64,000 nt of DNA. Origin: Vulcanimicrobiota bacterium (lineage in GTDB: Bacteria; Vulcanimicrobiota; Vulcanimicrobiia; Vulcanimicrobiales; Vulcanimicrobiaceae). Made by a program: the position numbers and the translations under genes. This document shows positions 1-36,997 of the stretch, piece by piece (within the stretch, counting starts at the first letter, position 1; each line of letters starts with the position of its first letter). Under the pieces are notes generated by a model that was given only the letters and a program-made list of their open reading frames with translations, made no database searches and was not told the origin of the DNA. Location of the stretch: NCBI GenBank assembly GCA_963714015.1, contig OY970223.1, positions 1,856,001-1,920,000 of the forward strand, in the 5' to 3' direction.

Positions 1-3000
1 GCGCAAGCCCATACCGCTTCGACCACAACCTGGCTATGGCTGTTGATCGGGGCCGGCTTCGTCTTGCGCTTGATCTTCATGGGCAACGAGGGCTTCAAGG
101 CCGACGTCGGTACGTTCGAAGCATGGTCGCTCACCCTCGCGAGCCACTCGTTCGCGCAGTTCTACGGATCGGCCGGCTTTGCGGATTATCCGCCCGGTTA
201 TTTCTATGTCTTATGGGTCGTCGGGCACGTGTTCGCGGCGCTGCCGGCACACGGCGATTACACGTTGCTCAAGTATTTGGTGAAGTTGCCCGCGGTGCTC
301 ATGGACCTCGCGGACGGTGCAATTCTCTACGCGATCGCGCGACGGTTTGCCTCAGATCGTTTCGCGCTGGGCGTTGCCGCACTGTTTCTTTTGAATCCGG
401 CGATCATTTTCATCTCGGCGGCGTGGGGACAGGTCGATTCGATCTCGGCCGGACTCTCGCTCCTCGCGGTGTTTCTGATGCTTCGCTCGGACGAACGCGG
501 CGGTACGGATATCGTGCTGGCGTGGCTCGCCCTCGCGTATTCGCTGCTGATCAAACCGCAGGCGGCGGTGCTCATTCCGCTTTTCATAGCATTTGCCTTA
601 GTTCCGAATGCGAGAAGATCGATGCGGATGACGTATACCGGCGCAGGCGTCATTGCAGCGGTCGTTCTGGCTTTCGTGCTGACCGTGCCCTTTCATCCGT
701 CAATCAATCCGGCGGACGTGTTCGGCTGGCTCTATCAGAAGTATGAATTCGGAAAGAACGTCTATGCTTACAACTCGGTAAACGCATTCAATCTGTGGAC
801 AGCGATGCCGGGCAAGCGATTCTGGCAGCCCGATTCGCAATACATTGCGATGTTTCCGCAGTACGTCTGGGGCATGCTGCTCGTCGCCGCCGCGACCGTG
901 ATCGTAATCGTGCGGTACGTCGCCGATCGCTCGGCGCAGGCGTTCGTAGAAGCGGCGGCGCTGTTGACGCTCTCGTTCTTCATGCTCGCGACGCGCATGC
1001 ACGAACGGTATATTTACGACGGCTTGCTTTTCACGATGGCCGCTGTTCCGGTCGCCCGGCGCTATTTTTGGGCGGCGATTGCATTTTCGTTCACCCTATT
1101 CATCAATCTGTTTTACTCGTTGAATTACGTAACGGTGGTTTCGGGAGGGGCTCCGGGCGTCGATCCGACCGATATCTGGCCGGCGGTGACGCATCCGCTC
1201 TCGATTTTGAACGTGGCCGTGTTCTTTTATCTCGGCTACGTGTTTTTGGGTCCTGCGGCTTCCGTCGAAGGGCGATCTTCAGCGGATGGCGTTGCCGCTG
1301 CGCCGGAGTCACCGCTGGCTTGGTTGAACCTGCGGCCGGCGCGGACGTGGTTCAACCCGCGCGAGGGCCTGGCGTCGATGGTTTGGCCGCTGGACTACCT
1401 GCTCGCCGGATCGTTCGGCGTCCTTTCCTTCCTCGTCTCGTTCGTCAATTATTGGCTCCCGAATAAAACGGACCAGTGCTGGTCGGTCGTTGCCGGCATT
1501 ACGCGTTGCGGCATCTTCGACGAGATTTACTTTGCGCGCGCGGCTGAAGAATACCTGACGGGCAAATACATCTACGAGAACACGCATCCGCCTCTCACGA
1601 AACTGATCATCACGCTCTCGACGATGATGTTCGGCGGAATGGCGCATGGCGACAGTACGTACGGATGGCGCTTTTTGGACGTCCTGTTCGGCGCAATTGC
1701 GATCGTCATACTGTATGCATTCGCAAGACGCTTGACGCGGTCGACGCTGTTTGCGTCGCTTGCCGCGATCCTGTTCATTGCGGACGGCATGCACTTCGTG
1801 CAGTCCCGCATCGCCACGCCCGAAGGGATCGTGGTAGTGTTTTCGCTCGGAACGCTCTATGCGTTTTACCGCTTCTGGATCGCCTCGCAGTCGACGACTC
1901 GCCGATACGAACCGCAAACGCTCATCCGTGCCGGCATCTGCGCCGGCGGCGGACTCCTCCTAGGATTTGTAAGCGGCGCGCTGGCCGCAACGCTGGCGGC
2001 GCCTCCGCATTCCACTGCGTCGTACATCGTTTCGGGTGTGTATTTCACTTTCGGCTGGTACTTGGTGCTGCGCTTGTGGGTGGTGCCTCGGCTGCTGCCG
2101 GCCGATGGCGAGTTCGTCGCGTATCCTGAGGGCAGCATCGCGATACGCAGCGCGAACGGCGCTATCTTGCACACGCCCGACGGCGGAGAAGCCTCGCCCG
2201 AGCGAAAGGCGCCGCGCGCGGGACGCGTCAGCCGGGTGAACAAAGGCGAACTGGTTTTCAAAGAAGAGCAAGCGACGATAACGTACGGACGGGATCTATC
2301 CGTGGCCTATGCCACCCCTGAAGGAAGCGCAACGTATACGCCCGGCGTGGTGATCGACGATATGGGCGAGAAGCAAGAGGGGCGCCATGCAACTGCGTGG
2401 CTGATTGCCTTTACCTTGCTGCTGGGCGCGCTCGTTGCGAGCAAATGGTATGGCGTAATGGCGTACGGCGTTTCCTTCGTCGTGATTGCTTACGTTTGGC
2501 TGCAGCGTTATCTTCAGGAAGGCAGGACCAAACACTGGGGCAGCCCCTTCGGCTTCCGCCTGGACGTTGCAGCCGCCGCGATTGTGTTCTTGAGCATGAG
2601 CGTGTACATCTGCGTGTGGATCCCGGATTTCTTCCGGCACATCGAGATCAAGAACGTCACCGATCTGGTGTACCGGCAGTACACGATGTTCGAGTATCAT
2701 GACACGCTCAAAGCAACGCATCCGTACCAGTCGGCCTGGTGGCAGTGGCCGCTGGATCTGCGCCCTATCGCTTATTACTGGAAAGACTTGCGCGGAGCAG
2801 TACAGGCCAGCAACCCGAACGCATGCTGCGTGGCCGAGGTGATTTCGTTACCCAATCCGCTGATTCTGTGGTTCGGCCTGCTTTGCGTGCCCCTCGTCGG
2901 ATACTTGGCATGGCGGGAGAAGAACAAAGGCTATGCGCTTCTCGTGGTAGCGTACATTTTGCAGTGGGTGCCGTGGGCGCGTTCCCCCCGCATCACGTTC

Positions 3001-27337: not shown

Positions 27338-28474
27338 ATGGCCGGAATCTACGTCCACCTGCCGTTCTGTCCGTACATTTGCCCTTACTGCGATTTTGCA
27401 AAATGGCCGCACCGGAGCGGCGCCGCGCAACGCTATCTGCAAGCGCTTCTGACAGAGATTCGTTCGCAGCCGCAGGCGAATGGCGGCGAGCAATTTGAAA
27501 CGGTGTTTTTGGGCGGCGGAACGCCCAATACGTACTCGGCGCAAGATATTGCAATTATTTTGGATGAATTGCGATCGCGTTTTCCCGGACCGGCGGGTCG
27601 CGAGACCACCATCGAATTGAATCCGGAACTGGTGCGTGCCGAAGATGTGGACCTCTACCGCGAGGCGGGAATAACGCGTGTTTCCGTCGGCGTGCAGTCG
27701 TTCGCGCCGAACGAGATTCGCACGCTGGGGCGCCGGCATACCGTTCAAGACGTTCGCAGGGTCGTCGAGGCGGCGCGTGCTGCGCGAATCGCCGGCGTGA
27801 GTCTGGATTTGATCTTCGGCGTGCCGGGACAAACGGCGCAGAGTTGGCGGGAGTCGCTCAAAACGGCAGTCGCTTTGGGGGCGGATCATATCTCGACGTA
27901 TGGTCTAACGGTTGAGCCCGGAACGCCGTACGAGCGCTGGAAAGAACGCGACCCTTCGGCCTTTCCGGCGAACGATGACGAGGCGGAGCTTTACGAGATT
28001 GCGATGCTCGAGCTGGAGTCCCACGGATTCGAACACTACGAAATCAGCAATTTCGCAAAGCCGGGGCATCGCAGCGCGCACAACGCCAATTATTGGGCAA
28101 ACGGAGATTACGCCGGACTGGGCGTGGGCGCGGCATCGTACCGCCGCGGGGTACGATGGACGCATACGCGCGACTTGGAGGAGTACATTAACGCGGTATT
28201 AGAAGGTCAACCGATTCCGGCGCAATCAGAAGCGTTGATCGGCGCGCAAAAAGCGGGAGAGGCCGTAATGCTTGCGCTGCGCACGGCGCAAGGGGTATCG
28301 CTGGAGACGTTCAAAGAGCGGTACGGTTTGGACTTTTTGGAATTCTACGCCCCGGTCGTGCAGGAATACAGCGAAATCGGTTTGTTGGAAGTGAGCTCGA
28401 CGCATGCACGGCTGACGCGCCGCGGGCGGTTCTTGGCCAATGACGTATGCGCCGCTTTCGTGACGTTCGCGTAG
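27338..28474 (+). CDS. hemW: Radical SAM heme chaperone HemW
   Basis: [33 protein letters not shown]. Confidence 0.95.
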
Positions 28475-28491
28475 GCCCCAGCGTTGCAGGC

Positions 28492-29547
28492 GTGCTGCTG
28501 CGGTTCCTTTTCGCAGTCGTCTTCGGCATAACCGGATTTCTCCTCGGACGCGAAGCGTATATTCACGTTTTCTCCCTGCATTTTTCCAGCGAGGCGCTGC
28601 AAACTGCGCTCACCATCGTACTGCCGATTGCCGGCGCCCTCCTCGGCATCGTGCTGGCGCCGCTCGCGCAATCGCTTTTTGAAGAAGAGCTGAATTTGGT
28701 CGAGCGTGCCATCGAACGGCTGGCGCCGGCCGAACTGGCGGGCGGCGCCGTCGGATTGATCCTGGGTTTACTGATCGCGTTCCTGATCCGCAGCATTTTG
28801 TTCGAATTCATCTCGACCACCGGGCGGGCGGGCAGTTACGTCGCGATTCTGCTGTACCTCATCATCAGCATATTTGCCGCGTATTTGGGCGCGCGCGTGG
28901 GCTCGAGAATGCACATTCTGCCGCTCGCAAGCGTCGGAAGCTTAGCCGGAGCGCCGCCGAAGATCGTCGACACGTCCATACTGATCGACGGCCGAATCGT
29001 CGAGATCTTCGAATCGGGTTTTCTCGACGGGCCGTTGATTCTTCCGCGCTTCGTTCTGCGCGAACTTCAGGCGGTGGCCGATTCGAGCGACGGCATGAAG
29101 CGCACGCGAGGACGACGCGGCTTGGAAGTGCTCAAACGGCTTCAGGAACTGGGTATTTTGGAAGTGAGCGAACGCGACTACGACGATTTGCGCGGCGCGG
29201 ATGCCAAACTGGTGCGCCTCGCCAAAGATTTGGACGGCAAGCTTCTGACCAACGATTATAATCTGAATAGAGTGGCGCACGTGGAAGGCGTGGCCGTCCT
29301 GAACGTCAACGAACTTGCGAACGCAATAAAGCCGGTCGTTTTGCCGGGCGAGGAGATGCACGTGCATATTATTCGCGACGGGAAGGAGCCGCATCAGGGC
29401 GTCGCCTACTTGGACGACGGTACGATGATTGTGGTCGAGAACGGACGGCGTTTAGTGGGCGAGGCGGCCGACGTAGTCGTGACGAGCGTGTTGCAAACTG
29501 CGGCGGGCCGCATGATTTTCGCCAAACCGAAACGGGAGTTTCGTTGA
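28492..29547 (+). CDS. Membrane PIN/TRAM-domain protein (YacL-like)
   Basis: Four TM helices, [32 protein letters not shown]. Confidence 0.93.
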
Positions 29548-30266
29548 TGGAGCCTTCCTCGTACGGATGGGCCGCAATTGTTGTAGCGGCAGGCCGCGGG
29601 CGGCGATTCGGCGGCCCTAAGCAGTTGGTGGAGATAGCCGCGCAGCCGATGCTCGCGTGGTCGCTCCGCACGTTTGCCGCGATGGAGGAAGTTGCGCAGT
29701 TGATCGTCGTGACGGAAGCCGAATGGGTGACCGACGTCTCGGCGGTCGTCGAGCGCGTCGCCGGCGTGAAGCGGTGGAGCGTCGTCTGCGGCGGACCTAC
29801 ACGGCAAGCGAGCACGTTTGAGGGCATTCGCGCCGTTCAGCCGCAATGTACGGCGGTGTTCGTTCACGACGGTGCTCGTCCGCTGATTCGCGAGAGCGAC
29901 GTGCGCGCGGGAATGGAAGCCGTGCAGCCGGGGCATGGTTCGCTGCTTGCGATTCCCGTGGTCGATACGATCAAACGCGTCGCGTCTCACAGTCACGTCG
30001 TTGCCGAGACATTGGATCGCGATCTGCTGTGGGCGGCGCAGACGCCGCAGTTTGCGATGGTTGCGGACCTTCGCGCAGCGCATGAAGCGGGGCGCCGCAC
30101 CCAAGTCGAAGCGACGGACGATGCGATGCTTCTGGAACAGGCCGGCGTTCGCGTGCACGTGGTTTCGGGATCGCCGGAGAATTTCAAAGTCACCGTTCCG
30201 GAAGATCGCGAGCGCGCGGAACAGATACTTCGTTTGCGGTTCGCCGCGCAGCAGGGACGCCCGTGA
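29544..30266 (+). CDS. ispD: MEP cytidylyltransferase
   Basis: [26 protein letters not shown]. Confidence 0.97.
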
Positions 30267-30736
30267 CGCGGGTAGGACATGGGTTCGACGCGCACCGTCT
30301 AGCGGAAGGGCGTAAACTGATTTTGGCCGGAGTGGAGATTCCGCATGAAACGGGCGCACTCGGGCATTCGGATGCGGATGTCGTGGCACACGCGATTAGC
30401 GATGCCTTGCTCGGCGCGGCCGCTTTGGGCGATCTGGGCGGCCGTTTTCCCGATACGGACGAGCGGTGGAAGGGCGCGAATTCAATGAAGCTGCTCGCGC
30501 AGTGCGTCGAAGAAGTGCGCGCCGCTGGATATGCGATTGCCAACGTCGACGCGACGATCGTGCTGCAGCGGCCGAAGCTCGCGCCGTATATCGCGAAAAT
30601 GCGCGAGAACGCGGCGCGATGCCTTGATATAGAGCCGTCGCACGTGAGCGTGAAAGCCAAGACCAGCGAGGGCATGGGCTATACGGGCGACGGTTCGGGG
30701 ATTGCGGCTTACGCAGTAGTGTTAATCGAGAAATGA
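30263..30736 (+). CDS. ispF: MECDP synthase
   Basis: GHGFDAH, GHSDADV, VKAKTSE. Confidence 0.98.
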   Translation: MTRVGHGFDAHRLAEGRKLILAGVEIPHETGALGHSDADVVAHAISDALLGAAALGDLGGRFPDTDERWKGANSMKLLAQCVEEVRAAGYAIANVDATIVLQRPKLAPYIAKMRENAARCLDIEPSHVSVKAKTSEGMGYTGDGSGIAAYAVVLIEK

Positions 30737-31287
30737 TTGCGCGCGGTGAGCTTGCAGCGGAGATGCAGCGTTGGGGTTTTTTGGAAGATCCGGCGCCTGA
30801 GGCGGCGTTGCGCTGGATCGACACGTTTTTGGAAGCCTACGGCGATCGCTTGCAGTCGGTGAATGACGCCCGGCCCTACGTTGCCGAACTGCGCATGGAG
30901 GCGTGCGTTATTCCGGCGCTGGAACTGGAGCGTCTGCGAACACGCGAAGTACTATTCTTTTTGGACACCGTCGGACAGTACGTGGATAGCCAGGCGGAGT
31001 TGCGAGGCTTACCGCTGGAACACGACTTGGTCGAAATGGCGAAAGAATTCGGCATTTCGCCCAGCGACGCGCGCTACGCCGCGCGCATGGCTCTTACCGG
31101 GAAAACGGAAGGGCCGCCGCTGGAATTGTTGTTCCCGCTGCTCGGCCACGATAGGATCTTGATCCGGATCGGCGCAGTGAATTCCCGACTGTTGCACGGT
31201 CGCGGTCTCGAACCGATCAAATACGGCCCCGGCGGAGTTCCATTCGAACCGATCCACGGTACTCGTCCGGATGAAGACGACGTTTGA
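30733..31287 (+). CDS. Stand-alone GluRS-type anticodon-binding-domain protein
   Basis: RMALTGKTEGPPLELLFPLLGHDRILIRI matches the GluRS C-terminal signature; no HIGH/KMSKS; occupies the usual gltX position. Confidence 0.75.
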   Translation: MIARGELAAEMQRWGFLEDPAPEAALRWIDTFLEAYGDRLQSVNDARPYVAELRMEACVIPALELERLRTREVLFFLDTVGQYVDSQAELRGLPLEHDLVEMAKEFGISPSDARYAARMALTGKTEGPPLELLFPLLGHDRILIRIGAVNSRLLHGRGLEPIKYGPGGVPFEPIHGTRPDEDDV

Positions 31288-31314
31288 CGGCCTGCATTCC
31301 CCAGGGTCTTCCAA

Positions 31315-31590
31315 TTAAACGGTCTGACGGCTGCGAACCCAGCCGAGCACTTTCGCGGCTACGTCTTGAGGCTGCACGTTCGTCCAGGTCCGAAAAGTCG
31401 TACCTGCGGTAAATCCGGGATGCTGTCCTTGCATTTGAACCATTACTTCGATGGCTTCGTTCCGGTTTTTGAGCGAGACGTTGAAAGCGTCGTACCAGTA
31501 CACCGGGCCGCGCGGATCCGTCCCCGGACTAACGGGGCCGAGCGCGCTTAGAAAATCCGCGCGCCATTCTTCGAACGTCGAAAATCGCAT
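31315..31590 (-). CDS. Hypothetical protein
   Basis: GGAGG RBS, 91-aa ORF. Confidence 0.6.
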   Translation of the reverse strand: MRFSTFEEWRADFLSALGPVSPGTDPRGPVYWYDAFNVSLKNRNEAIEVMVQMQGQHPGFTAGTTFRTWTNVQPQDVAAKVLGWVRSRQTV

Positions 31591-31699
31591 ACACCCTCCG
31601 TCCAGGGCGAAAGGTTCCGCCGCCGCTGCGGAGTTCCTCGGTAATAGAAGAGCCGCCCTCGTGGACGGCTCCCGCGGCGATCGACGTCGAAGCCCTCGC

Positions 31700-32251
31700 C
31701 TACATGGGCGGCTTGATGTCGGCGACGCTATTGTACTGCGAAAACGTCCAGGTCTCGTCCTTGCCGAGGTATTGAACCGGAAGACCGTTCGCGCCGATCA
31801 GGAGGTCGAACGTGTCACCGTTTTGCCTGTTGACCACGTGATACTTGTGTGCGGCGGCAGTCGTCATACCCTTATCCGTAACGTTGTATTTTTTTCTAAT
31901 GTCGGAACTTTCCAGATTGAGCGTACGCAGATGTTCCATCAACGTGACCGCCATTGCAGGCTGCCCCGGCCGGGCCATCCATCTGCCGTCCATGCCTTCC
32001 CAGGAATGAGCACCGATGGCGATCAGTTGCATGCCGTTGGATATGCTCCAGTGCACCTTGTCCGGATTGATCAGGTCGAGCGTAACCGACTCTTGCGGTT
32101 CCTTGATGTCGACGTGGACTGAATTCACGTTTTGAAAGGCAGTTTTTACCGCTGCGAGGTCGCTTGCCGGATCTGCGAATGCCGGCTGAGCGGCTAATGA
32201 AGTGAACGAGGCGACGGTGAATGCGAAAAGCCAAAGGATCTGTCTAGTCAC
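31700..32251 (-). CDS. Secreted protein, possibly LolA-like fold
   Basis: AAGGAG RBS with GTG start; signal peptide AFA; C-terminal FSQYN...IKPP. Confidence 0.6.
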   Translation of the reverse strand: MTRQILWLFAFTVASFTSLAAQPAFADPASDLAAVKTAFQNVNSVHVDIKEPQESVTLDLINPDKVHWSISNGMQLIAIGAHSWEGMDGRWMARPGQPAMAVTLMEHLRTLNLESSDIRKKYNVTDKGMTTAAAHKYHVVNRQNGDTFDLLIGANGLPVQYLGKDETWTFSQYNSVADIKPPM

Positions 32252-32286
32252 GAGATACTCCTTTCGATGTGCGCTGCGATTGCGTA

Positions 32287-33907
32287 TTACGGCGTTGAAA
32301 GATGATTGAGAACCGCGCGCGCGAGCGTTTCGGAGGCTGCGAGCGCAGGAGAACGCGAGCCCTGAACGAGCAGTTGGAACGCCATGTCGGCCTTGACGAC
32401 AGTGAGCGTGCCCTCTTTCCACGACGCTTTATCGCCGAGTCCCGAAAGCATCTGCGCATCGGTGAAGGCGCTCGAAAGGCCCGGCGGCAGGTTGGGAACG
32501 CCCGGCACGCCGAGCACCGACTGCACCGCGCGCAGGCAGCCGAATCCGTGACACGCTGTTGCGGCTTGAACGGGATGCATCGTCAGCACCACGGTTCGCG
32601 CCGGAGCTCCGCCGTGTGATGATACAGCCCAGGCGCATTCGTTCGCAGACGAATGCTGCGCGGTGCCCAGCGATGAAACGCCGACGCCCAGCGCCGATGC
32701 GACGTCGGGCGAGCCGAGCATGCCGCACGGATCGACGTTCAGACTCGAGCCGTTAGACGATGCTTGTTGCCGTGCTGCAGGCTGCGCCGCGGCGGACGGG
32801 GCCTGCACGGGTGCGGGCTGCGCCGGTTGGGGCGTTTGCAGCGCATCCTGTCCCGGTGCCATCGTAACGGTTCCCCCGCAGGTCAAGACTGATGCGAAAG
32901 TTCGCCGGGCTGCGATACTGTGGAACCGGAATCGCAAGTTTTATTTTCTCTTGCGTAGCGGCATCGAACGTCACGAGCAGCCGTGTCGGCGCATCCGCGG
33001 CGTTGAAGGTGCCCCAAGAAATGAGCTGATCGAACGTGTACGGCACGCCCGGAGCGAATGGTAGATTTCGCGAGCCCAATGAAAAGCCGCCGACGACGTT
33101 GGCCGAGGAAGAATCGTTGCCGCTCTTCGTGGCGAGAAATTCGTCGCTGGTGTTCGTCGGTGCTACGCGATTGCCGATGTCGGCCAATCCGCCCGGGAAC
33201 ACCTTCATGTGGGTGATGTTGATCCATTCTTGCCGGATATGCCAGCCGAATTGATTTTTCGCGACGGTCCCGACGGGAAAGGGCGTCACGGCGAGCACGC
33301 GCATCTTCCAAATGCCGTTGGACATCCACTGATTCATGCACCCTTGCTGAGCCGCGAGCTGTGAGGAACCGCCTTGCGCCTGCGCTGCAGCTCCTGCGGC
33401 AACGCAATCCAGGTTGTAGTCAAAGTTGTATTGGCGAGTAGAAAAGTGCGGTTTGTTCATTCGCGCGAGTACCTGGCCGTCGAATGTTACGTCGAGCGAC
33501 CTCGGCTTGTCCGAGGGATCGACTTTCATATTGGGGCCGAAGAACGATTGCGTATACGTGAACTCTCCCGCCGGCGCAAAGTTATTAAAGACCAGCGCCT
33601 GCTGGTTGTGTCCCTCCGCCGTGAGCGACAAGGCGGAAAGATTCAACGTCTCTTCCTTGAATTGCGAATCTGCCGGAGAAAGTTCGCGCGAGGTACCGTT
33701 ACGCCACGTTTGCGTGATGCGCCATCCGGTCTGCTGCGAGCCGTCCATAATCGGCTCCGCCTTGGTCACCTTGGCTCGCCAGAGGCCGTTGAACAGCCAC
33801 TGATTCATACATCCGGTGCGAGTGTCGCTTTGTGCGATCGCTTGTACCGGCGCCGCAATCTGGGTAGCCGCGACAAGCGCAGCGAGCAAGAAAGCCTTGG
33901 TTCTCAT
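32287..33907 (-). CDS. Secreted protein with two internal repeats and a C-terminal Cys-containing domain; frameshift near 32890
   Basis: Signal peptide; GCMNQW..NG.W occurs twice; two overlapping ORFs join. Confidence 0.65.
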
Positions 33908-34080
33908 TGCATAACACCTCGAGAAACTTCCCTTGCTCAGAGGCTAACAGCGAGGCGTCCCCACAACGTCCCACCGCCTTGCCGCGCGGTGCGAGCGCTG
34001 CAACCGCAGGTAAGGAAAGGCCGGTTCCGGGTGGGAATACCGGCAAGCCCCTCGGGGATATACGATAAGACTTTAGGATA

Positions 34081-34764
34081 ATGACGCTTTTCCAGACTAT
34101 CGCGGCCGATTTGAAGGCCGTTCTGCAGCGCGACCCGGCGGCTCGAGGGCCGGTGGACGTGCTGCTGTCCTACCCGGGATTTCACGCGGTGACGGCACAC
34201 CGCTTTATTCACGAGCTTTGGCGGGCCGGGATTCCACTGCTGCCGCGCTTTCTTTCAAACGTAAACCGCTTTTGGACCGGCATCGAAATCCATCCGGCCG
34301 CAAAACTTGGATCGGCGTTTTTCATCGACCACGGAATGGGGGTGGTGATCGGCGAGACGGCCGAGGTGGGAGAGAGCTGCACGATTTATCAGGGCGTCAC
34401 GCTGGGCGGAACGAGTCTCTCGCACGGCAAGCGGCATCCGACTCTGGGCAATAACGTGACGGTGGGCGTGAGTGCGGTGGTCCTGGGCGCCATTACGATC
34501 GGCGACAACGCGAAGATTGGCGGCGGTTCCGTCGTCGTCAAAGACGTGCCCGCGAATTCGACCGTTGTCGGCGTTCCGGCTCGCGTGGTGATGCAGGACG
34601 GCGTTCCCGTGAAATTGGTACCGGAGCGGCCCCACGTTGACATGCCCGATCCAAATGCCGACTCCATTGCGCAGCTTCAGAAGCGCATTCGCGATTTGGA
34701 AGCGCGTTTCGACGCGATCGAACGAGAAGAAGATTCGCAGTCTTCGTGGTCGTGGGTCGTTTGA
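34081..34764 (+). CDS. cysE: Serine O-acetyltransferase
   Basis: RDPAA, TGIEIHP, FIDHGMGVVIGET, KRHPT. Confidence 0.97.
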   Translation: MTLFQTIAADLKAVLQRDPAARGPVDVLLSYPGFHAVTAHRFIHELWRAGIPLLPRFLSNVNRFWTGIEIHPAAKLGSAFFIDHGMGVVIGETAEVGESCTIYQGVTLGGTSLSHGKRHPTLGNNVTVGVSAVVLGAITIGDNAKIGGGSVVVKDVPANSTVVGVPARVVMQDGVPVKLVPERPHVDMPDPNADSIAQLQKRIRDLEARFDAIEREEDSQSSWSWVV

Positions 34765-34766
34765 CG

Positions 34767-36200
34767 ATGCGGCTGTACAACACCCGGACGCGAACCCTCG
34801 AAGCATTTGCGCCGTTGGATCCTCCTCGAGTCCGCATCTACGTGTGCGGACTCACGCCATCGGCGGAGGCGCACCTGGGGCATGCGCGTTCGTTCTTGTT
34901 TTTTGACGTGCTGCGCCGTTATTTGAAGTACTCGGGTTATGACGTTACGTACGTGCAAAACGTCACCGACATCGACGATAGAAGCATCAATCGCGCAAAA
35001 GAGACCGGTGAGGACTGGTACGACATCGTCAGCCGGTACTACGCTTCGTTCAAGCGGTCGATTCACGACCGGTTGGGCGTGCTGCCTTTTGACGAAGAGC
35101 CGTACGCGACGAAGTTCATTCCGCAAATAGTCGCGATGATAGCGCAACTTCAAGAGCAGGGGTATGCGTACGTCGCCAGGGACGGCGTGTATTACCGCGT
35201 CGCGAAATTTTCGCGCTACGGACGGCTGAGCAACAAGAACATCGAGGAACTGGAAGCCGGCGCGCGCATTGAAGTGGACGAGTTCAAAGAAGATCCGCTG
35301 GATTTTGCGCTCTGGAAGTTTGCGAAACCGGGCGAGCCCAAATGGCCCTCCCCCTGGGGTGAGGGGCGCCCAGGCTGGCATATCGAGTGCTCGGCAATGT
35401 CGCAGCAGCTGCTCGATCCCCAAAGCCGGGGATTCGACATACACGGCGGCGGCGCGGATCTGATTTTTCCGCATCACGAAAACGAGATCGCGCAGAGCGA
35501 GCCGCTGATGATTCATCCGCCCATGGCGAATTTTTGGATGCACGGCGGCCTGCTGCTGTTTGACAATTTGAAGATGAGCAAGTCGCTGGGCAACTTTGAA
35601 CCGCTCTGGGAATTGCTCGACCGGCACGATCCGCAGGCGATCCGTTTGTTGTTTCTGCAAACCGGTTATCGCAAAGTGATGAATTTTACGGAAGATTCGA
35701 TAACCGGTGCGGCGACGGCGCTGGAGCGCCTGAAGCGAACATATCGCGAGTTGCGCGCTCGGCATGATGGAGCGAGCGGCGCAGCTGAAAGCGGTTTGAT
35801 GCAGCGAGTCTCGCAAGCGCTCGATGACGACATGAATACAGCCGTCGCCTTGGCTGAAGTGCTTTCATTTAAAGACGGGTCGCTGCAAGAATACGCGACG
35901 GCGCTGGACGTATTGGGATTGACGGCGAGTGATTCTTGGCTGGAAGCGCCGCCGCGGTTTTTGCCGCCGGATTTTGTCGAAGCGTTGTCGTCGGCGATCG
36001 CCGGTATGCCGGAATTGGCAGACGGTTCGTTGAACGGTGTCAGTGCCGAAGAGGCCATTGCGCGCGTGATTGAGCGGCGCAGACAAGCCCGCGCGAACAA
36101 GGATTGGAGCACGTCGGATCGGCTGCGCGATGCATTGGCGGCTTGCGGCGTGGCGCTGAAAGATTCGAAAGAAGGCACAACGTGGAGCGTAGACGCCTGA
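34767..36200 (+). CDS. cysS: Cysteine--tRNA ligase
   Basis: [27 protein letters not shown]. Confidence 0.98.
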
Positions 36201-36997
36201 ACCGCCGGCACGCCGAGCGTCGGCAAGACATCGACTTTGACGCCCTGATCTACGGTGTCCACGCCGTAGAGGAGGCCCTGCTCGCGGGGGAGGAGCTGCG
36301 CTTGATCCACGTCGCGGACGAACGCCGGCGGGATCCCGTATTGCGCAACCTGCTGCAGACGGCTCGCGAAAAGCAGCTCCCCGTGCACTTTGAGAATCGC
36401 GAGTTTTTCGGCAGGTTTCCCTATAAGGCCCATCAGGGTGTCGTTGCTTTTGGGCCGCCGTTCCCATACGCGTCGCTCGAGGACATTCTAGGTTCCCGCG
36501 CCGGCGATCCGCTGCTGATTGTGGTCCTGGACCACGTCACGGATCCGCACAACGTCGGCGCGATAATTCGAACCGCCGAATGCGCCGGCGCGAGCGGTGT
36601 CGTGATGCCGGAACGCCGCGCCGCCGGCGTTAATGCCACCGTGCGTAAAGCGGCAGCGGGCGCGACGGCGCACATTCCCGTAGCGCGCGTGTCGAACGTC
36701 GCGGATGCGCTGCGCCGCTTGAAAAAAGCGAACGTTTGGGTTGCGGGCGCGCACCTTTCCTCCGAAAGCGTCGATTATCGTGAGGCCGACTTTGCCCGCG
36801 ATCTCGCCCTAGTGATCGGTGCCGAAGGCACGGGACTGGCGCAGCTCGTTCGACGTGAATGCGACTATCTGGTCAGCATTCCGGTGCTCGGCAAGATTGA
36901 CTCGCTGAACGCATCGGTGGCGGCCGGCGTGCTGCTGTACGAAGCGGTTCGCCAACGGCGCGCTCAGTCTTTTGGCGCCTTGACTCAGCCGCAGTAG
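36182..36997 (+). CDS. rlmB: 23S rRNA (G2251-2'-O)-methyltransferase
   Basis: HQGV, DPHNVGAIIRTA, GAEGTG, SLNASVA. Confidence 0.95.
   Translation: MERRRLNRRHAERRQDIDFDALIYGVHAVEEALLAGEELRLIHVADERRRDPVLRNLLQTAREKQLPVHFENREFFGRFPYKAHQGVVAFGPPFPYASLEDILGSRAGDPLLIVVLDHVTDPHNVGAIIRTAECAGASGVVMPERRAAGVNATVRKAAAGATAHIPVARVSNVADALRRLKKANVWVAGAHLSSESVDYREADFARDLALVIGAEGTGLAQLVRRECDYLVSIPVLGKIDSLNASVAAGVLLYEAVRQRRAQSFGALTQPQ

Follow-up and report, generated by a model that had tools for sequence, protein, structure and literature searches.

A free-standing anticodon-binding domain between ispF and cysE in Candidatus Baltobacteraceae, almost certainly the remnant of a second glutamyl-tRNA synthetase

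The window analysed here is a stretch of 64,000 nucleotides from Vulcanimicrobiota bacterium (assembly GCA_963714015.1, contig OY970223.1, positions 1,856,001 to 1,920,000 of the forward strand). Positions 30733-31287 of its plus strand hold an open reading frame (ORF) of 184 amino acids (aa) plus stop, which begins with ATG and appears as an intact frame in the ORF list of the window. The start codon, from which the ORF has a translation start of its own, shares the four bases ATGA (30733..30736) with the TGA stop codon of ispF, in the string 'gagaaATGAttgcg'. An initial annotation had described an intact 184-aa ORF, coupled to ispF through this ATGA, that resembles only the helical C-terminal domains of glutamyl-tRNA synthetase (GluRS), with no catalytic domain. 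The ORF list and the sequence bear this description out, as does a Pfam scan in which PF19269 was the sole match. The features of the locus are as follows, with the evidence in brackets; the ORF is called the relic hereafter, and the Y type of the GluRS gene gltX is defined further on.

30733..31287, plus strand: free-standing GluRS anticodon-binding-domain gene, almost certainly a Y-type gltX relic (PF19269, fold, orthologs at 64-85% identity in the family of the window's genome)
30733..31185, plus strand: helical anticodon-binding core, residues 1-151 (VIA-align to T. thermophilus GluRS domains 4-5)
31186..31284, plus strand: lineage-specific C-terminal tail, residues 152-184, LLHGRGLEPIKYGPGGVPFEPIHG... 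(conservation)
30733..30736, plus strand: ATGA overlap of the ispF stop and the ORF start (sequence)
30263..30736, plus strand: ispF (YgbB), the upstream operon partner (PF02542, 226.4 bits)
29544..30266, plus strand: ispD (PF01128, 195 bits)
28447..29547, plus strand: PIN/TRAM-domain protein, first gene of the conserved block (PF01850, 29.9 bits; PF01938, 22.1 bits)
31315..33907, minus strand: ORF insertion between relic and cysE (ORF list; no Pfam family over cut-off)
34081..34764, plus strand: cysE (Hexapep and SATase_N matches)
34746..36200, plus strand: cysS (PF01406, 370.9 bits)

The only Pfam family detected in the ORF was PF19269 (Anticodon_2), which scored 33.7 bits (E 5.5e-8) where the cut-off is 23.6, and the alignment joined ORF residues 7-147 to profile positions 2-138 of 141; with the cut-off exceeded and most of the domain covered, the ORF belongs to this family. 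A whole-genome PF19269 scan gave 34 bits at the same position. The catalytic domain PF00749 had no match in the Pfam scan of the translation, and the NCBIfam model gltX_bact (TIGR00464) aligned through its C-terminal positions 347-464 of 470 only and scored 18.7 bits, well short of its cut-off of 290. The ORF thus lacks the class I catalytic domain of a functional GluRS, in which the HIGH and KMSKS motifs lie, and there is no room for such a domain upstream because the ORF start sits on the ispF stop. The motif RMALTG..GPPL..LLG..RI and the tail HGRGLEPIKYGPGG, both pointed out in the initial annotation, are present in the translation and occupy invariant or nearly invariant columns of the family alignment. 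Direct comparison with PDB sequences by phmmer returned weak GluRS matches (best E 0.0032), so a family profile and fold comparison were needed. An ESM Atlas search with the ORF returned PF19269 clusters of the same phylum and nothing else.

An AlphaFold2 model computed from an alignment of 39 sequences (A1) had a mean pLDDT of 92.1, a pTM of 0.86 and eight helices (residues 4-14, 23-39, 43-54, 62-67, 71-85, 95-104, 110-122 and 130-155). In Foldseek, the top 41 ranks shown were bacterial GluRS, with probability 1.00 and query-normalised TM of 0.46-0.65. VIA-align placed GluRS in its top 25 entries (Z 8.9-16.1), the first unrelated entry having Z 3.6; the best match was 2cfo_B (Z 16.1, model residues 1..160, 158 aligned, rmsd 2.8), and model residues 1..151 matched residues 323..468 of T. 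thermophilus GluRS (1gln) with Z 12.5. Residues 323-468 are the C-terminal domain of that enzyme as delimited in the cited part of PMC3927822. The model has the all-helical two-subdomain fold of GluRS domains 4-5, and the structural match to GluRS that the initial annotation proposed as a check is clear in both comparisons. As modelled, the ORF is the GluRS anticodon-domain fold (domains 4-5) followed by a tail of about 33 aa that is specific to the lineage. In the family alignment the C-terminal motif typical of GluRS, RxALTG...GPxL...LLG...R, is kept, with residues R118, G123, G127-P, L130, L137-G138, R141 and R145 invariant or nearly so. Compared with the C-terminal domain of bacterial GluRS (PF19269), the ORF has the same fold, sequence family and motif, but it stands as a gene by itself, has no Rossmann catalytic domain and bears the extra tail.

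The genome of the window, designated G000, is one contig of 3.56 Mb. Its family, Candidatus Baltobacteraceae (phylum Eremiobacterota / Vulcanimicrobiota), is designated f1; f2 and f3 are other families, f3 belonging to the same class as f1. Unpublished genomes (G010, G021, G023 and/or G036) enter the totals of the searches for the ORF, for catalytic domains, for rpoB and for GatB. Among 40 relatives, a match to the ORF was found in 23 of the 24 other f1 genomes, mostly at 64-84% identity; the matches include the unpublished G021 and G023, and the sole miss, the unpublished G010, is 75% complete. The order PIN/TRAM-ispD-ispF-relic-cysE-cysS was present in 18 published loci, with no catalytic-domain match there, and the PIN/TRAM gene was syntenic in every relative examined. 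Relatives share the ATGA overlap (locus L010) or have short spacers in its place. In G004 the relic adjoins cysS, and no ispF or cysE lies within the 5.5 kb fetched. The gene order assumed in the initial annotation holds for PIN/TRAM, ispD and ispF upstream and for cysE and cysS downstream, except that about 2.8 kb of minus-strand ORFs precede cysE in the window; this insertion was seen in this genome only, the relic being followed directly by cysE in 18 published relatives.

A search of a protein collection yielded 1078 homologs of 101-322 aa at E <= 0.001. The 120 homologs listed were all 74-100% identical to the ORF and 172-211 aa long, and bore names such as 'hypothetical protein' and 'Anticodon binding domain'. 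Among the 1.84 billion representatives of a further library, only 49 matched at E <= 0.001, and the longer proteins inspected among these (e.g. P0122, P0123, P0151 and P0155) were Y-type GluRS. Judged by these searches, the relic lineage is narrow and divergent from ordinary GluRS. One candidate for an independent free-standing domain elsewhere, P0169 (167 aa, 28% identical), was set aside as probably a fragment, given that its contig is 921 bases long.

The GluRS genes of these bacteria form three separate groups in the GluRS tree, W, Y and M (SH-aLRT 100, 99 and 100, respectively). The W type occupies the locus mutB12-gltX-glmU and the Y type the locus ispF-gltX-cysE, both in f3, f2, G014 and G015. 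The M type has the same mutB12/glmU flanks as W and is the sole GluRS in G000 and in all 15 relic-bearing genomes fetched. It matched P. aeruginosa GluRS (5tgt) at 614 bits and T. thermophilus GluRS (1j09) at 430 bits, and by this sequence comparison it is a Thermus/Pseudomonas-type GluRS. In the tree, M lies outside the entire W clade on a stem branch of 1.16, and W was apparently displaced by a xenologous M in the same slot (G000:C1:483492-487169, L001; L035-L054); alternatively, M may be a W that diverged very fast in place.

At the position of the relic, the f1 genome G014 carries a gltX of 520 aa with HIGH and KMSKS intact and with a C-terminus that, its tail counted, shares 66% identity with the ORF. 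In G015, three f2 genomes and 5/5 f3 genomes examined, the ispF-cysE interval likewise contains a full-length gltX, in agreement with the earlier suggestion that the free-standing domain sits at the ancestral gltX position. The ORF occupies the orthologous position, and its nearest relatives are the C-termini of full-length Y proteins. It is almost certainly the surviving C-terminal part of Y, a second GluRS paralog from which a catalytic domain of about 330 aa was deleted. On the sequences available, most Candidatus Baltobacteraceae have Y without its catalytic domain and M in the W slot. The loss of the catalytic domain of Y coincides with the presence of M, and the co-occurrence is strict among the genomes examined, M being found with the relic and W with full-length Y.

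Partly eroded forms of Y were also recovered. Along this series the PF19269 score of the Y lineage is steady at 24-38 bits, and the PF00749 score is 320 bits in the Y of G014, 256 in P0151 (G015-like), 197 in P0123 and 43 in P0122, with no match in the relics. In P0122, which is found on contigs of up to 22 kb, HIGH and KMSKS are not recognisable by eye, and the C-terminus is 67% identical to the ORF despite the dead catalytic motifs. The unpublished G023 bin contains two ispF-...-cysE-cysS loci, L029 (G023:C208) and L028 (G023:C16), one with a free relic and the other with a Y of full length that reaches only 156 bits in its catalytic domain; the bin may be mixed, or two populations may have been caught at different stages.

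The tail was modelled with a pLDDT of 75-78. Its residues L155, H156, G157, R158, G159, L160 and G169 (numbering of the first row of alignment A3) are invariant in 30 sequences, and tail and core are equally constrained (pN/pS 0.33 vs 0.35). No second copy of the tail motif was found in the six-frame translation of G000, and the motif is thus unique in the genome. The tail is already present on the full-length Y of G014 and of G027/G029. Within one f2 genus, the Y tail occurs in G027 and G029 and is missing from G025 and G026. The relic of G012 (L032, G012:C42) stops directly after the helical core, without a tail. In G017 (L030, G017:C1), a single-contig genome, the tail of the relic lies in a second frame (two tblastn pieces), and the frame switch is probably an assembly indel.

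Selection on the relic was estimated from Nei-Gojobori dN/dS for 18 published relic genes (153 pairs). The median dN/dS was 0.18 for the relic (pN/pS 0.35), 0.17 for ispF, 0.24 for cysE and 0.30 for ispD, ratios that are rough because synonymous sites are near saturation; between the relic of the window and that of a same-genus relative, dN was 0.11 and dS 1.7. The constraint is nevertheless strong, since the 184-codon frame stays open across these near-saturated synonymous distances. On these ratios, purifying selection acts on the relic in more than 20 genera and equals in strength the selection on its essential neighbours, and the relic very likely has a selected function. The initial annotation was therefore right to doubt simple decay, the median dN/dS being like that of ispF and the frame being intact in 18 published loci from different genera. 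It had also named full-length gltX genes in close relatives as a sign of recent deletion or misassembly. Such genes do occur in two outlying f1 genera and in the other families, but the form in two same-genus genomes and in about 20 other genera is the truncated one, which rules out both explanations.

Only one PF00749 locus is present in G000 (C1:484243-485669), and the gene there includes a PF19269 domain of its own at 69.7 bits. This gltX is read in two frames, which switch between 'WEAP' and 'QLCHLPLLRN' at a run of five C (locus L001, ~1500-1520, minus strand), and the 15/15 M-type orthologs fetched from relatives are uninterrupted at 486-512 aa. In G000, rpoB is also broken, with two in-frame TGA and split frames, as is gatB, which ends after 436 aa and continues in a second frame. 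The breaks in gltX, rpoB and gatB are probably homopolymer indel errors of a long-read single-contig assembly; indel errors would fit the 89.6% completeness of G000. All 11 f3 genomes (11/11) have two full GluRS genes and the relic-bearing f1 genomes have one catalytic domain each; f2 genomes have two full GluRS genes and one GluQRS-like copy. A PF00749 search of the relic-bearing f1 genomes found no GluQRS-like catalytic-only copy. In the f2 genomes G025-G029, the third PF00749 match (160-172 bits, profile positions 4-282) lies in frames of ~317-335 aa and is GluQRS/YadB-like.

The number of truncations was considered on an rpoB tree (20 published genomes, careful search) and on a tree of four flanking genes, because a tree of the anticodon-binding domain alone (32 rows) leaves the base of the family unresolved. 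The rpoB tree shows G014 as sister group of the window's clade, which has ten genomes (100/98; the ten-genome clade itself 97/98); a second relic-bearing clade (G004, G006, G012, G016 and G024; 95/93) stands apart from it, and the placement of G015 is unresolved. In the flanking-gene tree, G014 and G015 nest among relic-bearing genomes, and in an approximately unbiased (AU) test monophyly of the 19 relic-bearing rows was rejected (p 0.003). If regain of the catalytic domain is excluded, Y was probably truncated at least two times independently. This fits two N-terminal architectures of the relics. Those of one clade (G012, G016, G019, G024 and P0121) begin with 'M..D(Y/F/L)S.PPF...', resembling over a short distance the N-terminus 'M..DY.RP.R.RFAPSPTG' of full-length Y, which is suggestive only of an internal in-frame deletion with the original start kept; those of the window's clade start a few residues ahead of the domain. 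M is monophyletic yet occurs in clades on either side of G014 in the tree, and was therefore transferred between clades or sorted from an ancestor with both types. The count is weakened by the poor basal resolution of the domain tree, by its dependence on single-gene and four-gene trees, by the post hoc naming of the AU group once the tree had been seen, and by the possibility that G014 re-acquired W and Y.

Aragorn listed 47 tRNAs in G000, including a tRNA-Sec gene; the genes of tRNA-Gln(CUG) and tRNA-Glu(CUC) lie on the same strand 5 bases apart (G000:C1:3088025-3088174). The genome has tRNA-Glu(UUC, CUC) and tRNA-Gln(UUG, CUG), and both tRNA-Gln have U1-A72. A domain search of G000 found no GlnRS anticodon domain, and the genome has GatA and GatB; GatB was present in 31/31 genomes searched (18/18 in f1). 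Gln-tRNA-Gln is therefore expected to arise through glutamylation by M followed by amidation. Here, by analogy, lies a puzzle: M keeps Arg358, and its characterised relative, T. thermophilus GluRS, is a discriminating enzyme. Arg358 marks discriminating GluRS, and its mutation in T. thermophilus relaxes discrimination against tRNA-Gln (PMC3927822, cited part).

Specificity columns were compared in T. thermophilus numbering, taken from the alignment of the M type to 1j09 and carried over by a MAFFT alignment of 66 sequences. The Arg358 column holds Arg in M (16/16) and in W (14/14, and also in the W-locus copy of G015), and among full-length Y it holds His in f3 (10/10) and Gly or Glu in f1/f2 (5/5). 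In 20 relics it holds Arg six times, Gln five times, Gly twice, and Lys, His, Ala, Ser, Asn, Asp and Leu once each; the residue of the window's own relic is Arg39. The Thr444 column is Ser in M (16/16) and in all W rows, the W-locus copy of G015 included, and Gly in 20/20 relics and 15/15 full-length Y (f3 10/10, f1/f2 5/5). In H. pylori GluRS2, the substitution G417T in the anticodon domain switches preference towards tRNA-Glu1 (PMC2777447, cited part). These columns lead us to infer a tRNA-Glu-type enzyme in W and a GluRS2-like, tRNA-Gln-oriented one in Y. Like the GluRS2 of H. pylori and A. ferrooxidans, which have no GlnRS, Y is a second GluRS in genomes without GlnRS; the relic differs in that its catalytic domain is gone, and the tRNA-Gln specificity of Y is itself inferred.

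The best overall explanation, which we advance tentatively, is that the ORF is a Y relic retained by selection as a binder of the anticodon arm in the indirect route to Gln-tRNA-Gln. Y would have been a GluRS2-like, tRNA-Gln-oriented enzyme, as its non-Arg residue in the Arg358 column and its Gly in the Thr444 column suggest, and its anticodon domain and tail would have had a role independent of its own catalysis. That role could have preserved the domain once M made the catalysis of Y redundant. The relic would bind the anticodon arm of tRNA-Gln, perhaps also of tRNA-Glu, and keep tRNA-Gln or Glu-tRNA-Gln bound for, or offer it to, the sole GluRS and/or GatCAB, with the tail as a putative docking element. 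Stand-alone binding of the tRNA-Gln/Glu anticodon arm, the mechanism proposed here from sequence, is possible although more doubtful than the overall explanation; an anticodon-arm binder is favoured because the motif is invariant, the charge is like that of W and Y domains, and the parent enzyme appears tRNA-Gln-oriented. With a median net charge of -10, the relic core is close to the W and Y domains found in intact enzymes, and the acidity of the relic is for this reason no argument against tRNA binding; the charges do not help to choose between the explanations considered here. An exapted tRNA-binding protein, the other suggestion of the initial annotation, is plausible. A still less probable form of the idea is a two-protein non-discriminating system, in which M keeps Arg358 and the relic with its tail brings tRNA-Gln to M and/or GatCAB. 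If true, a domain surviving the loss of its own enzyme would supply tRNA specificity in trans, and the two-protein system would be a natural intermediate for the proposed domain-shuffling ('chimera') origin of GluRS2.

Several points weigh against an anticodon-arm binder. The variable Arg358 column indicates that discrimination of the third base is not maintained in the relics, and H. pylori G417 is presumed to be the counterpart of Thr444. In the anticodon domain of M itself (88.8 bits) the free domain would have a competitor for the anticodon. H. pylori GluRS1 breaks the Arg358 rule (PMC3927822, cited part), and since the rule is not universal, M may be non-discriminating by itself. H. pylori GluRS2, moreover, reads the acceptor stem, the anticodon adding little to tRNA-Gln selection (PMC2777447, cited part).

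The main competitor, which we regard as rather unlikely, is that the relic is a protein-interaction or moonlighting module that binds another protein, for instance a partner in metabolism or regulation, by its tail and helical surface and does not act through tRNA, in the manner of HisZ-type pseudo-enzymes derived from aminoacyl-tRNA synthetases (aaRS). It would account for a tail that is as constrained as the core, with an invariant HGRGL that is unique in the genome, and that was present on some full-length Y enzymes, that is, before truncation. The free variation of the Arg358 column in the relics and the full-length P0122, with its dead catalytic motifs (PF00749 43 bits) and C-terminus of 67% identity, point the same way. 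The canonical C-terminal motif, however, is invariant or nearly so, as expected if a tRNA-facing architecture is kept, and the gene neighbourhood points to no partner outside the ancestral operon.

It is quite improbable that the relic is a tRNA-sensing regulator or a handler of tRNA-Glu, for example one that delivers Glu-tRNA-Glu to glutamyl-tRNA reductase, for the making of tetrapyrroles, or senses charging. The anticodon-binding fold of the model would suit such a role, and the family has phototrophs that need tetrapyrroles (PMC9758169 and PMC6664022, cited parts), but no link to hemA or to regulation was seen at the locus or in co-occurrence, no dedicated search having been made. A functionless decaying remnant or an assembly or annotation artefact, to which the indel errors in gltX, rpoB and gatB of G000 might point, is very improbable and was rejected in view of the same intact ORF in 18 published short- and long-read loci, the dN/dS of 0.18 and the 1078 short homologs in metagenomes. 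The split GluRS offered in the initial annotation, with the ORF acting in trans to a catalytic half encoded elsewhere, recalls the title of Dubois et al. 2009, in which a C-truncated GluRS is reportedly stimulated by a free distal domain, yet it can be discarded with near certainty: the only PF00749 gene of G000 has its own PF19269 domain, M is full length in 15/15 relatives, and no catalytic-only copy was found.

Free-standing aaRS pieces such as YadB, AlaX, YbaK, HisZ and Trbp111 have repeatedly proved to have functions of their own. YadB, which modifies tRNA-Asp, is a GluQRS and likewise a single-domain GluRS paralog, but it consists of the catalytic domain only, and the relic is its mirror image. 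In the split E. coli GluRS of Dubois et al. (Biochemistry 2009), the free distal domain is said to act in trans; that system is a laboratory construct complementing a truncated enzyme, whereas the sole GluRS is full length here. Trbp111, Arc1p and PylSn are small stand-alone aaRS-related proteins that bind tRNA in trans. YqeY is a free-standing tRNA-binding relative of the GatB tail (PMC1865053, cited part), and the isolated GluRS N-terminal domain is described as 'rampant in bacteria' (PMC3927822, cited part). YqeY, Trbp111, Arc1p and PylSn differ from the relic in fold and origin, none being known to derive from the helical anticodon domain of class Ib GluRS; by analogy, we hypothesise that the relic could work like YqeY or Trbp111. 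A full-text search, which did not cover subscription journals, brought up no publication about a free-standing GluRS anticodon domain or about the GluRS of Eremiobacterota.

The family offers a nearly replicated natural experiment, in which a GluRS of foreign type sits in the housekeeping slot and the catalytic domain of Y was lost, apparently at least twice and through different deletions. Eroded Y intermediates are extant, and the anticodon domain and tail have always been kept under strong constraint, a pattern that singles out a catalysis-independent role of the GluRS anticodon domain. It also raises the question of how tRNA-Gln is charged without GlnRS and with a Thermus-type GluRS. The question is experimentally accessible because the family has a cultured member, Vulcanimicrobium alpinum (PMC9758169 and PMC10582173, cited parts).

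Some further observations concern the locus itself. An Rfam scan of positions 28000-36500 at E <= 0.1 gave zero matches, and the locus therefore has no T-box or other leader recognised by that scan; a scan for promoter and terminator patterns gave nothing exceeding shuffled sequences. A search of sequencing runs for the locus gave no RNA run; its only entry was a DNA run from a soil metagenome, in which the share of words was 0.05. The minus-strand insertion (31315-33907, ~2.8 kb) consists of four overlapping or adjacent ORFs of 91, 240, 216 and 384 aa, with no Pfam family over cut-off and one weak DUF3558 match. Downstream of it, cysE and cysS overlap by 19 bases (34746-34764), given the listed GTG start of cysS.

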